Source: Octopus vulgaris
Taxonomy: Eukaryota
Direction of reading: 5' to 3'
Assembly (NCBI GenBank): GCA_951406725.2
Contig: OX597831.1
Location: 79,174,001-79,238,000, forward strand
Length of the DNA stretch: 64,000 bases
Shown: positions 1 through 59,734 of the stretch, piece after piece
Position numbering within the stretch: the stretch's first letter is position 1
Layout: each line of letters starts with the position of its first letter
Translations under genes and position numbers: made by a program
The notes under the pieces: generated by a model
Database searches by the model: none
What the model saw: only the letters and a program-made list of their open reading frames with translations
What the model was told of the DNA's origin: nothing

Positions 1-169
1 CGACGAAGACGACAAGAGGAAGAGTAAAATTATTAAAGACATCAAGAAGAACAATAACAACAATGACATTAACAATAAGAATTAAAAGAATACCAACAAT
101 AATAACAATAATAACATAAAAGAATGGTAACAAGTATACAGCAAGCAATAAACATACAAGAAAAAGGAG

Positions 170-325
170 GAGGTGGGGGAGAAGGAAGAGAAGGTGAAGG
201 AGAAAACGACGAAGAAGAAGAAAAAGAAGAAAAAGAAGAAGAAGAAGAAGAAGAAGAAGAAGGAGAGAAGGTGAAGGAAGATGATGATGAAGAAGAAGTA
301 GGAGAAGAAGAAGAAGAAGAAGAAG

Positions 326-357
<32 letters not shown>

Positions 358-600
358 GAAGAAGAAGAAGAAGAAGAAGAAGAAGAAGAAGAAGGAGAAG
401 AAGAAGAAGAAGAAGAAGAAGAAGAAGAAGAAGAAGAAGAAGAAGAAGAAGAAGAAGAAGGTGAAGGAGAAGACGAAGAAGAAGAAGAAGGAGGAGTTGA
501 AGAAGAAGATGATGATGATGAAGAAGCAGAAAAAGAAGAAGAAAAAGAAGAAGAAGAAAAAGAAGATGAAGAAGAAGAAGAAGGAGAAGAAGAAGAAGAA
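170..600 (+). repeat. (GAA)n-rich trinucleotide microsatellite
   Basis: Long runs of gaa with gga/gat interruptions; explains the poly-E/poly-S/poly-F ORFs. Confidence 0.95.
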
Positions 601-984
601 ATTTCTTGTATTAGCCAGAGGGGCGTAAATGAGAGTGACAATAATAATAACAATCATATTAATAATGACAATAACACAACAACAGCAATTATTGAAGCAT
701 TAATTAGAAGAGTAAGAAAAAGGAAGATTGCGATTGTGATAAAAACGAAAATAATCAACAAAGCTACAACAACAGTGACAATAACAACACCAATAATAAT
801 AATAATAATAACATGGACGACGTCCTTAATAAGACTCACGATGACGATGACGACGACGACGTTAATAACAACAACAGCCACAAACGGGAATTCTTCGGCA
901 AAGACTATTAAGAAAAGAAGCAAGTTTGGTAGGTTCAAGTCTTTTATTCTTGGATTCGTGACATGTGTTTGGTATGGAGGAATG

Positions 985-2177
985 GAGGTGAGGGGTGGGG
1001 GTGCTGGTGATGGTATTGGTGCTGAGGATTGTTGTTGTTGTTGTGGTGGTGCTGCTGCTGCTTGTGCTGGTGGTGGTGGCGAAATTGGTGGTGATGGTGT
1101 TGGCGGTGGTGGTCGTGGTGGTGTTTGTCGTGCCGGTTGTAGCGTTGGTCGTGATGGTGGTGGGGTTACAGCAGGTGGTAGTGGTGATGGTGGTGGTGGT
1201 GGTAGTACTGATGGTTATTATTGTGATCGTGGTGGTGTTAGTGATGGTGGTGGTAGTGGGGCTTAATTTGTTAATTGGCTTTCTGCTGGTAGTGATATGT
1301 TGGAATGGTAAGCATGTCTTCACTGATGGTATTCAATGATGGGGTTGTGGGAGATGGTGTTGGTGGTGGTGGTACATATGGTTGTGGTAGTGGTGGTGGT
1401 GGTACTGATGGTTGTGTTAGTGATGGTTGTGGGAGGTGGTGGTAGTGGTGGTAGTACTGATGGTTGTGATACTGATGGTTGTGGTGGTGGTGGTTGATGG
1501 AGGTGGTGGTGGTAGGGGTGGTGGTAGTACTGATGGTTGTGATAGTGGTCGTGGTGGTAGTACTGATGGTTGTGGTAGTGGTGGGGGTACTGATGGTTGT
1601 GGCTGTGGTGGTGGTGGTACTGATGGTTGTGTTAGTGGTGGTGGTGGTACTGATGGTTGTGTTAGTGGTGGTTGTGGGAGGTGGTGGTGGTGGTACTGAT
1701 GGTTGTGGTAGTGGTGGTGGTGGTGATGATGGGGGTGGTGGTGGTTGTGGTTGTAATGATGGTGGTGGTTTTAGTGGCTTAGTGCTTGCATTGGTTGTGG
1801 TGGTAGTGGTTGCGGTAGTTGCGGTTGTGGCGGATTGGTGGGGCCTGATTTGTTCATTGGTTTTCTGCTGATAGAAATATGTCGGAATGGTAAGCATATC
1901 CTCACTGATGGTATTCTGCCGACATTGCAAGTTTTGTAGGGTCTGCTTTAGGGGTAGTTTGTTACCAAATAACGCGGTTGAGGATGCTAATGCTGACGAA
2001 GGTTGCTGGTGGTGATGATGCAGCAACTGCTGCTGCTGATGATGATAATGATGATGATGAAGATGATACGATGAGGAGGAGGAGGAGGAGTAGGAAAATA
2101 ATGCTGCTGAAGATAATGATGTTGATGTTTACAGTAATGATGATGAGGAGAAGCAAGGAAAACGACGATGAGGATGA

Positions 2178-2273
<96 letters not shown>

Positions 2274-2557
2274 CGACGATGATGATGATGACGATGAGAA
2301 GGATGACGATGATGATGATGACGATGAGAAGGATGATGATGATGATGAAGATGACGATTGCCACGACGATGACGTTGGATACAACGATGACGATGATGAT
2401 GATGAGGTTGTGGAGGAGGAGCAGAAAGGGAGAACACTAAGAGAAGGAAGAGGAGGGAGAGGATGACGATGAGGAGGGGAAGATGATCATGAAAATGATG
2501 AGGGTGAGTCGTGCTAATAATAATAATATTATTAGCAACATTCGAACGTACAGCGGC

Positions 2558-2637
<80 letters not shown>

Positions 2638-2948
2638 AGGTAGTAGTTAGAGTTAGAGAAGGAAATGCATGCTGTTTGTGCTGGTGGTTTTGGTAACGAT
2701 AATGGTGGCGTCGTGCGAATGGCTGATTCGTGATTATGGAGTATTGTGATATTAATGGTGGTGGGGGAGATGATGATGATAATGGTGATAGTGGCGGTGG
2801 TGGTGGTGGTGGTATTATGATGGCACCAAAACTGTTGTTGTTGATGTTGTTGTTGTCAACGACGTGACGTCATCGTCGTCGTCTTCGCCGTCATTAGTTA
2901 TTCTTGATGTTACCATCATTGAAGTTCCTATCGTGACGATGATGGCGG

Positions 2949-3006
<58 letters not shown>

Positions 3007-3162
3007 AACGATGATGATGATGATAACGACGACGACGATGATGACGATGATGATGACGATGATGATGATGATGATGAAAGTTATTGCTGCAGTATTGGCT
3101 GAGTTTTTATTCGTGATACAGTCGGTGTTAAAGGTTTTTTAGCCATTGCAGATAATAAAATA

Positions 3163-3204
<42 letters not shown>

Positions 3205-3435
3205 AAGTATTAGTAGTAGTAGAAGTAGTAGTAGTAGTAGTGCCTGCAGCGGCAATGGCGGTGGTGGTGTGCTGTTGGAGGATGTGTTCTGGTGGTGCTG
3301 GTAGTAGTTTTGCGGTTGTAATATTGGTGACTGTGATTGTGCAATTTGGTGGTCATTATGGCTGTAGTGATGGTGATGTTGGTGGTTCTGCTGCCGCTGC
3401 TGCTGCTAATGGTAATGATGAAGATGATGATGATT

Positions 3436-3505
<70 letters not shown>

Positions 3506-3520
3506 GGAGGAGGAGTGATG
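985..3520. repeat. Compound low-complexity region of (GGT)n, (GCT)n, (GAT)n and (GTA)n, with a 21-24 bp minisatellite ggtggtagtactgatggttgt (about 1190-1720)
   Basis: Repeats are directly visible; the unit 'tactgatggttgt' recurs about 10 times. Confidence 0.9.
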
Positions 3521-3921
3521 TAATTATGGTAGGAGTACATGTCAAGAATAACAGTACCAAACTCTCACTCACAGATTACAGCAGACCGTCGTAAATGTCA
3601 AAGAACACTTCAGAGACTTCACTACTTGTAACACTGAGTTTGAATAAAACACGATGGTCTTCATTGGAACAATGTTGATGAAAGATCCACTTGATCACAG
3701 ATTGACCTTGGGCTAAACTGTAACGGCTAAAACTACAACAGTAACAACGAAGTCGACGAACGACGATTACAAGCGAAACTACTTAGGACAACATTAAAGA
3801 TTTGGCGGCCCCAATACCAGCCCCAGGAATGCGTCTAATATGCAAATCGGTGTATCCAATAACTTAACATTGCTGTATGCGGAGGCTATATAAGCAATGT
3901 CTTCGGAGGCAATAGTTAGAT

Positions 3922-4152
3922 CAGTGGTTCTCAAATTGGGCAGTATTGCTCCCCTTGGGAGCAGTGGAAAGTTCTAAGGGGGCGTCGAAGAAAAGTAAGG
4001 CAATATTGGGATAGCGGTTTATAAAAAAAAAAAAACAGCAACATAATGGATTCATTAGGTTTAAGTTTTATTTGTGAAATACAGTCGCTTTGAATTTGCT
4101 TCAGAAAGCGGTCTATGGTTGTGGTGTTTAGTTGGGGTGGGGGTAACCACTG
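3922..4152. mobile_element. hAT (Charlie/MER5-like) non-autonomous MITE
   Basis: Termini CAGTGGTT...AACCACTG; 8-bp TSD agttagat (3914-3921) / ggttagat (4153-4160); no ORF. Confidence 0.75.
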
Positions 4153-7401: not shown

Positions 7402-7830
7402 GCCCAGGAGTGGCTGTGTGGTAAGTAGCTTGTTTACCAACCACATCGTTCCGGGTTCAGTCCCACTGTGTGGCACCTTGGGAAGTGTCTTCTACTATAG
7501 CCTCGGGCCGACCAAAGCCTTGTGAGTGGATTTGGTAGACGGAAACTGAAAGAAGCCCGTCGTATATATGTATATATATATATGTATATATATATGTATA
7601 TATATATATATGTGTGCGTGTGTGTTTGTGTGTCTGTGTTTGTCCCCCTAGCATTGCTTGACAGCCGATGCTGGTGTGTTTATGTCCCCGTCACTTAGCG
7701 GTTCGGCGAAAGAGACCGATAGAATAAGTACTGGGCTTACAAAGAATAAGTACCAAGGGTCGAGTTGTTCGATTAAAGGCGGTGCTCCAGCATGGCCGCA
7801 GTCAAATGACTGAAACAAGTAAAAGAGAGA
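7402..7830 (+). mobile_element. SINE family B, full length (tRNA-like head, CORE-like start, internal TA/TG microsatellite, 3' module)
   Basis: A box tggctgtgtgg, B box gggttcagtccc, ggcaccttgggaagtgtctt, tail gcggtgctccagcatggccgcagtcaaatgactgaaacaagtaaaaga. Confidence 0.9.
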
Positions 7831-8811
7831 AAAGAGAAAGAGATATGAAAGGAACGGGCGAGCGAATTTCTCTGACAAACCAATATTCATTCCTCCCGTT
7901 GGTTGGCCAATAAAAACAAATATTTGTGTTTTCTATTTTTTTTTTTGGTTCTCTTTGGCGGAATGCGATTGGTTCGTCTTTGGAAACACGTCAAGCTGAC
8001 ATGGCAGCCCGTGTACATGGTTCGCTATTTGCGGTGTTTGTGTTCTTGTTGTTGACGTATGTTGGTGGTTCCGGTGGTGGTGGTGGTGATGGTGGCGGTG
8101 GTCGATATAGTGGTGGTGTTGGTGATAGTGTTTGTGGTGACGTTGGTAGTGGTAAACCTTTTTTGCCGTTGTTGTTGATATAGTTGTTGGTGTTAACGAG
8201 TGTGGCGGTGGTGGTTTTGGGTGGCAGTTGGTAATTGCGGTGGTGGTGGTGGTGGTGGTGGTGGTGGTGTTGATGCTGCTGCTGTTGCTGCTTCTGCTGG
8301 TGCTGGTGGCGGAGATGGTCGTGCTGCTGATAACGGTGCTAATGGTGTTGCTGCTGCTGGTGGTGGTGGTAGTATGTTTTTTGCCGTTGTTGATATAGTT
8401 GTTGATGTTAACGAGGGTGGCGGTGGTGGTGTTGGGTGGCTGTTGGTAGTTGCGGTGGTGGTGGTGGCGGTACTGGTGGTGGTGGTACTAGTGGTGGTGG
8501 TGGTGGTGTTGGTGGTGGTGGTCTGCTGTGGTCTGCAGTTAGTGGTGGTAGCGGTGCCGATGGTGTTGGTGGTGGTCGTGGTGCGAGTAATTGTTTTCTT
8601 GATGTTCTTCTTCATGTCGTTGTTGTTAACGGTAGGGTTGGTGGCGATGATGATGATGATGAGGATAATGATGATGTTCCTGTTGTTGTTGTTGTTGCTA
8701 GTGAGGGGTGGTGGAGGTGTTGGTAATGGCGGCGATGGTTTTTACTGCTAATGCTGTCCGTTATTGTCAGTTATTGTTATTCTTGTAACTCATATATATT
8801 TTCATTACCTA

Positions 8812-15768: not shown

Positions 15769-15818
15769 AACACGACTAATAATGGTTTCATATTTTGGTA
15801 CGAGGCCGGCAGTTTCTA

Positions 15819-16220
15819 GGCGCAGGAGTGGCTGTGTGGTAAGTAGCTTGCTTACCAACCATATGGTCCCGAGTTCATTCCCACTGCGTGGCACCTGGGG
15901 CAAATGTCTTTTACTATAGCCTCGGGCCTACCAAAGCCTTGTGAGTGGATTTGGTACACAGAAACTGAAAGAAGCTCGTCGTATATATGTGTATGTATAT
16001 ATATATGTGTGTGAGTTTGTATGTCTGTGTTTGTCCCCCACCAACATCGCTTGACAACCGATGCTGGCGTGTTTACGTCCCCGTAACTTAGCGGTTCAGC
16101 AAAAGAGACCGGTAGAATAAGTACTAGACTTACAAAGAATAATTCCCGGGGTCGATTTCTTTGACTTAAGTCGGTGCCCCTGCATGGCCGCAGTCAAATG
16201 AATGAAGCAAGTAAAAGAGT
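15819..16220 (+). mobile_element. SINE family B, full length, apparently nested in a minus-strand family A copy (about 15783-16395)
   Basis: Consensus B sequence; family A tail-like sequence lies left (15783-15818) and the A body resumes at 16221. Confidence 0.85.
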
Positions 16221-21640: not shown

Positions 21641-23844
21641 TGAAGAAATGGAGTTGAACGAAGATTGAACAGAAATCCTTTTATTGCATTCTACACGTGT
21701 TTCAATTCACTAATAATATTAAAATTCAATTATCCGCACAAACGCACGGTTGCAACGCCATATGGTTGTACCTCCAACCGTGCTTTCTTCTGCTGTGATT
21801 TTTGCTACCAAGGTATCGGTTAAACTTTTGATTAATCTGCAACAAGATTATTCATCTTTCTATTTCACCAAATATATATATATATGTATATATATGGAAC
21901 AAAAACGCAATAGAGGGCATTTAAACGTTCGGACAGATGAACGATACAACAATTAGAAGGACAGGCAAAAAAAGACGTTGTCTTTCATCAGTCAAGTCCC
22001 AGAAGACACGATTATTTCGGGCAGTTACACTCGAGATGATATATGTATGTGTGAATATATTTGTGTATCTGTGTTTGTCCTTTCATCATCACTTGACAAC
22101 TGATGTTAGCATGGTTGCAAAAGAGACCGTTAGAATAAGTACTAGGCTTACAAAGAAAAAGTCCTGGGGTCGATTTGTTCGACTAAAGGCGTTATTATCG
22201 AAATTTTTTTAGAAAAGTTTCGTTATTTTTTCGTTATTATTTTTTTAGAAATTTCTATCGGTTTGCTTTCGAGACGCGTGCCTATAGAGATGAGTTATAT
22301 GGTTATTGACGATTAAGTCTATTTCGGCATATTTGGCATTGAAATTTTTTTTCTTTTGTCCTTGTTTATAAGTTGTTTATAAATTTAGCCTTTAAAGGTA
22401 TCTTTTAATATGGTGGCTATTAAGCATGACACGTCACCTGAATATTATTTTTTTTAAAATTGCTGTCATTTCTTGATATCATTCACACTTATCCAAGACT
22501 GTCTTATGGCATACGAAACTAAGGTAATTACACAGCGTTACTTGATAATAATTTTTCGAAAACCAGTTCGGGATTTTTCTCAGATTTTTCAGAAAATATA
22601 TTAACTTTTGTTCAAACTACAAGAAATATAATTTACTCCGATGGAACGCATAAAGAATTCCGTCCACACGAGGTAATACTTCAAATGTAGCTTTTAATCT
22701 ATGATTAATTTCTGTTTCAGAGTTAACTCCCCTTCATTTTTTAACCAGAATTAATCATATAAAGTTAATAGTGTATAAGTGTTTAGCTGCATGAGATATT
22801 TAATTCACTGCAGAAGTTTCTTAACATTCACTGACTATTTATTTTCCCTGCAGAAGGTGTCACTAAGTAATTTCTCCACCCAGTTAATCTGTGCTATACA
22901 ACTAAGGGTGTGGCTTCATGAATAGCTGGAATCATTCGCTCACAACAGCATTATAATATCGTTAAATGTCCAGAATCTCATAATGAAACGAATCCGAAGC
23001 GAAGCTCATTATTTAAGAGCGAAAGAATGCCAGGGTGGAGGAGAAAGTGAAGGAGAGGGAGAGAGAGAAATGTTGCGAACAAAAACGAATAGGAGATAGA
23101 TGTAGCCATAATTCAAATATCTCTCTCTCCTAAAACAGTGAACCGTGCGTTAATGATAAAAGCTTGGACAGGCTTCACAGCTTCATTGGTTTGACCTTAA
23201 GATCAGAAAAATAAAAAACGTTCAGAAACAGCCTTGATGTTTGCTTTATAGCCATAAAGCAGAACTCCAACGTATTTTCCAACCGTAATGATATTGTTTG
23301 AAAGAAGAGAGTTAACAAGAGTAACAACTGCAGCAACAACGTATATAAAGCAAAATATATGAAACAAACAGATCGTAGTGCAGCGACGAAAATATAAAAA
23401 CGATATCAACTGCAATCGTAAGTTATCAAACTACAGCAAACATCGACTTAAATGCAAATAACAATAGCCTATGAGAAACAACAACTACAACAAAAAAATT
23501 AGAAATATACACGAAAAAATAAACAAGGTACCATAGAAACACAAGCAACTATTGTAATGATATACACAGACACAATAGTACAGATGATCCAACGGAAAGT
23601 TTTCGAGTCGTAATAGCGATTACAACCTGTGAGAAGTAGTTTTTGTCTGAAGATCGCAATGGCATGAAACACCAGTTCAGATAATAATATATATATATAT
23701 ATATTACAGAGATGTACTTGCATAGCAAGTGATTTGATCTGAAACCGTGTGCTGAAACAAAAACAATTGCAGCGTGGAAGGTGTTTGTAAGCCATTTAAG
23801 AAACTCACAAAAGCCGTTCGATTCACTTCAACATTTAAGTTTAA

Positions 23845-23895
23845 TTTGTCAAAATATTTTCGTCGCTTTAAGACGGCGACCTGTTCACTGACAAA
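23845..23895 (-). ncRNA. Minimal type I hammerhead ribozyme motif, G3-C8 variant
   Basis: Minus strand: tttgtca-GTGAACA-g-gtcgc/cgtcttaaa/gcgac-GAAA-atat-TT-tgacaaa; 7-bp stem I and 5-bp stem II. Confidence 0.7.
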
Positions 23896-24164
23896 AATCC
23901 GTGCTGCATCTGAGAAAGTAACAGTTAGTCCGTTATATATATATGTACGTATATATTGTTGTATATATATAAGATAAGAATTCCGTTTAAATGAATATAT
24001 TATGTCCTCTATGATGTGACAAGTAGTCTCTTTGTCTTTCTTCCATAAACTATATCATCTTTATGCATATGTGTAAACAAGAAAATGAAATACATCCAGA
24101 TATATTTATACACACACACACACATATATATATATATACATGTATATATATATATATATGTATG

Positions 24165-59305: not shown

Positions 59306-59319
59306 CTTTTATTTTTTTT

Positions 59320-59697
59320 CTCTTTTATTTGTTTCAGTCATTTGACTGCGGCCATGCTGGAGCACCGCCTTTAGTCGAGCAACTCGACCCCAGGACTTAT
59401 TATTTTGTAAGCCAGGTATTTATTCTATCGGTCTCTTTTGCCGAACTGCTAAGTGACGGAGACGTAAACACACCAGCATCGGTTGTCAAGCAATGCTAGG
59501 GGGACAAACACAGACACACAAACATATACACACATACATATAAACATATATATACATATATATGACAGGCTTCTTTCAGTTTCCGTCTACCAAATCCACT
59601 CACAAGGCTTTGATGCCCAAGGTGCCACGCAGTGGGATTGAACCCGGAACCATGTGGTTCGTAAGCAAGATACTTACCACAACGCCACTCCTACGCC
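59320..59697 (-). mobile_element. SINE family B, nearly full length
   Basis: Reverse complement of the 7402 copy with a small deletion. Confidence 0.9.
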
Positions 59698-59734
59698 TAT
59701 ATATATATATATATATAAAGTTTGTATGTTTACG

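Follow-up and report, generated by a model that had tools for sequence, protein, structure and literature searches.

What is the hammerhead-like motif that lies on the minus strand at positions 23895-23845 of our window, a 64,000-nucleotide stretch of the Octopus vulgaris genome, and what would such a ribozyme do for the sequence that carries it? An earlier note had read the motif from the letters as a hammerhead with perfect helices whose core bases 3 and 8 are swapped to G and C, and re-reading the letters confirmed every part it had listed. A relaxed hammerhead descriptor that accepts any Watson-Crick pair at 3:8 found one match in the 64-kb window, on the minus strand, compared with 0.025 per shuffled window (40 shuffles). 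Rfam gave no hammerhead match in 23450-23935 at E<=10; a scan of the whole window was dominated by microsatellite matches (judged from the 150 of 358 rows listed). The window copy and the repeat family to which it belongs, which we call family A, carry U4 G5 A6, A9, G12 A13 A14, A15.1-U16.1 and H17, with G3 and C8 in place of the literal C3 and G8 of the CUGANGA consensus. Because of this swap and the lack of an Rfam match, we classed the motif as a hammerhead variant rather than a consensus member. Other hammerhead-like descriptor matches, with the canonical CUGAUGA core, lie in unrelated neighbouring repeats (L099, minus strand near 390, and L090 near 7599).

Features of the octopus locus, in window coordinates, with the basis for each assignment.
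Feature	Position	Strand	Basis
Probable Neptune-type Penelope-like element, 5'-truncated pLTR copy inserted in (TA)n	23703..23968	minus	blastn, shared extent in 30 loci
Putative transcription start	23911	minus	Common 5' boundary of short copies, usually with an untemplated G before it
Minimal type I hammerhead-like motif, G3-C8 core	23845..23895	minus	Letters, folding and alignment
Stem I, 5' arm	23889..23895	minus	Pair probabilities 0.64-0.95 in predicted leader
Core positions 3-9, GTGAACA (G3 at 23888, C8 at 23883)	23882..23888	minus	Letters
Extra G	23881	minus	Position normal in PLE hammerheads; published consensus A/C/U
Stem II (5 bp) with variable 9-nt loop	23880-23876 / 23866-23862	minus	Stem kept, loop differs among subfamilies; covariation across families
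GAAA (from 23861), palindrome AATATT (23858-23853), U17 (23852)	23852..23861	minus	Letters
Predicted cut	between 23852 and 23851	minus	Prediction
Stem I, 3' arm	23845..23851	minus	Letters
Element ORF start, ATG at 23795, cut off after ~30 codons	23703..23795	minus	Homologous start in sister families
Candidate 'tail' between common 3' ends at ~23766 and ~23703	23703..23766	minus	Copy 3' ends; analogy to the available part of PMC11167929

We examined the predicted fold of the motif. In the RNAfold structure, at -12.6 kcal/mol (z -2.2; 5 of 200 shuffles did as well), stems I and II enclose the core and stem III is absent; the z-score is modest and disappears once the flanks are included. Within the predicted leader, stem III has a probability of about 0 in the monomer. 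Attenuated or dimer-dependent activity, as suggested in the earlier note, is plausible in light of the literature, but ViennaRNA predicts -22.8 kcal/mol for a helix-swapped dimer versus 2 x -11.1 kcal/mol for two monomers, a negligible gain. Positions 23909-23904 pair with 23773-23768 on the minus strand of the predicted leader, closing a ~145-nt domain that encloses the hammerhead; such pairing, if the model holds, could bring the cap and the first reverse-transcription start together.

The motif might be peculiar to one copy or typical of a family. A first look through the 2.8-Gb genome with the 236-base region around it gave 2,194 candidates, and the 40 full-length matches listed were 94-100% identical to that region. 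A 17-letter pattern, with positions 3, 7 and 8 free and 4-6 and 9 fixed, matched the genome 8,208 times, compared with 12 times for the reversed control. Both G3 and C8 were present in 94 of the first 100 matches listed, none of which had C3 with G8. The same core was found in 29 of 30 loci (a few of them duplicates) picked by an upstream pattern outside the core, and U4 G5 A6, A9 and the other conserved bases were likewise present in 29 of these 30. Genome-wide, only 65 matches were altered at both positions, 12 of them to C3-G8. Two C3-G8 matches that we inspected are members of other families, and 12 of 20 inspected double-changed matches sit in older families with A-like stems, mostly with G8. 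In A2, a relative that is older and degraded, C8 predominates and position 3 varies. Contigs from sequencing runs labelled organisms A to D contain the element: four runs (organisms A and B) listed no difference at position 3 or 8 at a 3% threshold, with loop II varied, and loose-end consensuses for organisms C and D have the same core. The earlier note had proposed checking whether GTGAACA is the family consensus and had taken the motif for a natural variant rather than decay; run genome-wide, that check makes the G3-C8 core the family norm, and the conclusion holds. Its argument from intact stems does not carry the same weight, because this copy is 94-97% identical to its nearest relatives, so that the stems of one copy prove little.

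Some copies depart from the norm at position 8 only. In the first 100 of 386 copies with G3 but without C8, position 8 was G in 40, T in 44 and A in 16, and the excess of G over A is significant (p 0.002). These G3.G8 copies (L091, L095, L170, L302-L331) include some that run into the ORF. Their excess could reflect a transposing side branch or a mutational bias or hotspot, and is a hint that elements with an unpaired G3.G8 were mobile too.

The retrotransposon context of the motif, which the earlier note had missed, emerged from longer copies. One copy with a pLTR-ORF-pLTR tandem and internal breaks (L086) aligned by blastn in the window only at 23968-23703/23688 (89%), and tblastn with the element protein found no reverse transcriptase or endonuclease sequence in the window. 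In this tandem copy the ATG lies 56 nt past the predicted cut and opens a frame into the ORF, and longer copies continue into a GIY-YIG domain. A second copy (L084) has an open frame of 1,025 aa with a YVDD motif and a C-terminal Pfam GIY-YIG match above cutoff (E 1.8e-5); Pfam RVT_1 did not match this frame, and Atlas neighbours carry RVT_1/GIY-YIG. A PDB sequence search with the ORF returned 0 matches, and we saw no fully intact family A copy. A single ORF with reverse transcriptase and C-terminal GIY-YIG is what marks an EN+ Penelope-like element (PLE), and the pLTR tandem, inverted 5'-truncated copies and tail are PLE traits as well. Inverted 5'-truncated partners are common, flanks are (TA)n, and the copies stop at either of two 3' ends, both inside the first ~30 codons; these features agree with published accounts of PLEs (PMC8557442, available part). 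Among 60 loci (some of them duplicates), 29 ended at ~23766, 28 at ~23703 and 3 elsewhere. By analogy with a lizard element discussed below, the two ends would be internal reverse-transcription start sites.

Because a Cys linker precedes the GIY-YIG domain and copies end in (TA)n, the element likely belongs to the Neptune clade. Neptune PLEs, as described in the available part of Craig et al. 2021 (PMC8557442), share with it the reverse transcriptase, a CX2-5CxxC-type linker, a C-terminal GIY-YIG domain, a microsatellite insertion bias, inverted 5'-truncated copies and a tail, although the tail is ~60 nt here versus 30-40 bp there. According to the same source Nematis also has the linker, and our placement is one by features. 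A Naiad identity was rejected on account of the C-terminal endonuclease. A different Penelope-like ORF, with a YRDD motif and a GIY-YIG-like end, is represented by fragments at L063:1-1800.

A search with the N-terminal protein region identified sister families, whose homologous ATG is preceded by a motif in the corresponding position. Family B, for which a pattern matched 4,521 times, has a 1,308-aa ORF that is 54% identical to A over 815 aa, and C3 and G8 in 30 of 30 sampled copies. Its young members (L194:1242-1290, L244-L273; ORFs ~1,310 aa) have A9C in 27 of 30 and C17U in 9 of 30, and older copies (2 of 30) have canonical CUGAUGA at the homologous position. Family C (3,984 matches; L214-L243), with protein pieces ~43-60% identical to A, has U3 in 25 of 30 and A8 in 29 of 30, a UUU triplet and a stem I of only 3 bp. 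Position 3:8 is a Watson-Crick pair in these three families: G-C in A, C-G in B and U-A in C.

We compared the three consensuses; for family A the majority is that of 27 of 30 loci, two rearranged copies and a copy from another family having been left out. Families A, B and C all have Watson-Crick pairs at 11 of 13 pair positions, and at each of the 6 among these that vary, both sides change; positions 2.4 and 2.5 are not both paired in B and C. The sampling patterns fixed some stem letters, and were themselves drawn from sequences found by protein homology. U4 G5 A6, G12 A13 A14, A15.1-U16.1 and G10.1-C11.1 are consensus in A, B and C. The helix III palindrome, 6 nt long in A and 4 nt long in C, is imperfect in B. 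Several older copies have A-to-G at 1.3, which retains a U.G pair. Stems I and II surround the core as in a three-way junction, with compensatory stem changes across families. We also aligned 18 rows, hand-picked from the family samples and from four older copies of D type; all 17 distinct rows had a pair at 3:8 (GC 6, CG 5, UA 4, UG 2). The covariation score was reached by 0 of 500 shuffles and the covarying-pair count by 260 of 500, and relatedness of the rows inflates both tests. As judged from these alignments, the G3-C8 swap is natural covariation and not decay, because the sister families hold C3-G8 and U3-A8 together with compensatory stem changes. Catalysis may nonetheless be relaxed across the clade, since young family B has C9 and family C a 3-bp stem I.

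Much of this anatomy has precedents. For pLTR hammerheads of metazoan PLEs, an extra nucleotide and a palindromic helix III are standard and U3-A8 is known (Cervera and de la Pena 2014, PMC4209133, available part). The octopus motif resembles them in its pLTR location, the extra nucleotide between 9 and 10.1, G10.1-C11.1, the short palindromic helix III, the common U17, and its many solo copies and nearby opposite-strand pairs. The earlier note had called the UUU triplet unusual; however, U17 occurs in 24 of the 56 Penelope-type representatives published there (counted by eye), and UUU is published there for the oyster Crassostrea gigas, so the extra nucleotide, the palindrome and U17 are all ordinary for Penelope hammerheads. 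What sets the octopus element apart is the core pair: none of the 56 listed representatives has G3-C8, the list holding only C3-G8, U3-A8 and U3.G8. Its stem I is also longer (7 bp), and its extra nucleotide is G, as in only 1 of the 56 (Nasonia).

Natural 3:8 covariation itself is on record as U3-A8 in the Cercyon elements of S. mansoni (Perreault et al. 2011, PMC3088659, available part), and family C likewise has U3-A8. Unlike those variants, G3-C8 reverses purine and pyrimidine and is two transversions away from C-G or U-A. In the laboratory, the G:C swap was the sole double mutant to rescue the motif in a full pairwise scan (PMC9901934), and G3-C8 served as an engineered rescue in PMC8495972 and PMC3884650 as well. 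In the hammerhead of the Anolis element Poseidon_Ac (PAc), C3G/G8C partly restores cleavage; cleavage there needs protein, and in vitro insertion can do without the hammerhead (Frangieh et al. 2024, PMC11167929, available part). PAc likewise has its hammerhead at the pLTR/ORF start, two internal reverse-transcription start sites in the ORF start that give rise to the tail, and AT-rich insertion. It differs in that G3-C8 is an engineered double mutant there and the natural state here, and in that PAc, of the Poseidon clade, begins its ORF inside the hammerhead, whereas the octopus ATG follows the predicted cut. A literature search that covered few subscription papers found laboratory rescue mutants only, and no natural G3-C8 hammerhead. 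Lunse et al. reportedly described many PLE variants in 2017, and G3-C8 could be among them.

We then asked which RNA had been copied. The start lay no more than 24 nt upstream of G3 in 52 of 56 copies, and the starts form a wall at -23 (window 23911); the 56 are 60 minus duplicates, an inverted partner and one other-family copy, and the x-drop boundary is approximate for diverged copies. In the first 100 of 1,047 matches, the base immediately before this boundary was G 89 times and A 11 times; the parent has C or T there. We estimate that ~930 of the 1,047 exact matches start with an untemplated G at one site (L332-L361). Further 5' of the extra G, the 30 copies inspected have flank or inverted copy and no common sequence. 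At full-length 5' junctions of L1, an extra G reflects the cap (PMC11702581, available part), and Penelope has an internal promoter (PMC2377424, available part). By analogy, the extra G here is likely cap-derived, and the site likely the footprint of an mRNA cap and an internal promoter. Because they start at or near 23911, often with an extra G, most copies probably stem from capped and uncut RNA, and the short ones would be cDNA of the 5' end of such an mRNA.

PLE leaders often hold an intron, as in D. virilis, and a branch-point-like and an acceptor-like sequence lie at 23929-23910 on the minus strand, just before the putative start. Because these precede 23909, we considered a short spliced first exon as the source of the extra G. 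This idea is disfavored, since 5' of the G the copies have nothing in common, only flank or inverted copy; longer transcripts may still be spliced, and we saw no spliced copy.

Taken with the position of the motif, the family-wide swap, the covariation, the 5' boundary and the extra G, all of which are observed, these comparisons lead us to favor the following reading, to which we give a probability of roughly 60%. The motif would be the minimal 5'-leader hammerhead of a PLE, likely Neptune, with natural G3-C8 for C3-G8; its cleavage is likely weak or conditional on a dimer or protein, and transposition likely proceeds via uncut RNA. A capped transcript would start at 23911, stems I and II would fold, and pairing of G3 with C8 would allow the 2'-OH of nucleotide 8, together with G12, to act. 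Either a second copy, joined through the palindrome, or a protein would supply what helix III lacks. A cut after U17 would then strip the transcript of its cap and its first 60 nt, and the leader that is left would be 56 nt long and uncapped. Reverse transcription on uncut RNA would set out from a point within the first ~30 codons and proceed as far as the cap, yielding many short copies. Against strong catalysis stand several stacked handicaps: the extra G, U17, an all-A-U helix III and the negligible predicted dimer gain. An extra G reportedly slowed a viroid hammerhead in work by De la Pena and Flores in 2001.

Alternatively, the motif may be a catalytically dead or nearly dead relic, its fold kept for protein binding, promoter overlap or positioning of the reverse transcriptase, and its 3:8 pair kept for folding and not for chemistry. 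We regard this as possible, though unlikely. It would account for A9C in young, ORF-intact family B, for the G3.G8 excess and for copies that stem from uncut RNA, and it fits the lack of effect of hammerhead mutants on insertion in vitro (available part of PMC11167929) and the Naiads, which thrive without canonical hammerheads (available part of PMC8557442). What it leaves unexplained is that the unpaired catalytic bases U4 G5 A6 and G12 A13 A14, together with H17, are still consensus in all three diverged families, and that 3:8, a tertiary contact of the core in the established hammerhead structure, has no obvious large part to play except in an active fold.

A more ambitious proposal goes beyond the weak or conditional hammerhead that we favor. 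G3-C8 hammerheads would then form a natural active class missed by CUGANGA searches, in which switching of the core pair among C-G, U-A and G-C within this retrotransposon clade tunes a protein- or dimer-gated ribozyme that decaps the element's own mRNA, as a switch between translation and copying, with capped uncut RNA as the template. We consider this doubtful. If G3-C8 does cleave, standard descriptors undercount hammerheads, and claims of hammerhead-less elements need rechecking.

The HDV-like ribozyme of R2 elements defines the 5' end of the transposing RNA, and an efficient octopus ribozyme might do the same by routinely cutting the transcript. Lying within the 5' leader, with 56 nt between it and the ATG, such a ribozyme would be well placed for that role, and among 51 genome matches with a non-T at position 17, 23 of 30 inspected were junctions or rearrangements at the cut position. 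However, these 51, from a test that is blind to junctions preceded by T, compare with the ~930 copies that have the upstream extra G. Nor is there a spike of (TA)n junctions at the cut, with 3 of 30 loci there versus 4 at +3, 3 at +5 and 3 at +8 (distinct loci, by eye). Such junctions are more frequent downstream than upstream of the cut, a surplus that AT content or stalling of the reverse transcriptase at the hairpin could explain. Routine cutting that sets the transposing 5' end is therefore improbable. The Rfam result and the modest, flank-sensitive z-score might speak for a resemblance by chance, or for decay in one copy of a canonical hammerhead. Both can be dismissed given the number of family A matches, their near-absence of C3-G8, the CUGAUGA that older family B copies have at the corresponding place and, above all, the covariation across homologous families, which refutes them.

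These results bear on what hammerheads do for PLEs. One octopus genome holds three related high-copy families with three core pairs and one A9C, a natural mutant series. The extra 5' G, if cap-derived as is likely, provides genomic evidence of a capped uncut template in vivo, which matches the in vitro PAc result.

Elsewhere in the window, an abundant short interspersed repeat occurs at 7402-7837, 15818-16220 and 59315-59710, among other places, in copies of ~430 bases that are 84-87% identical to the L297 copy. Positions 1-4000 have a strong G skew (0.47-0.64), which at the window start is due to long (GAA)n simple repeats.
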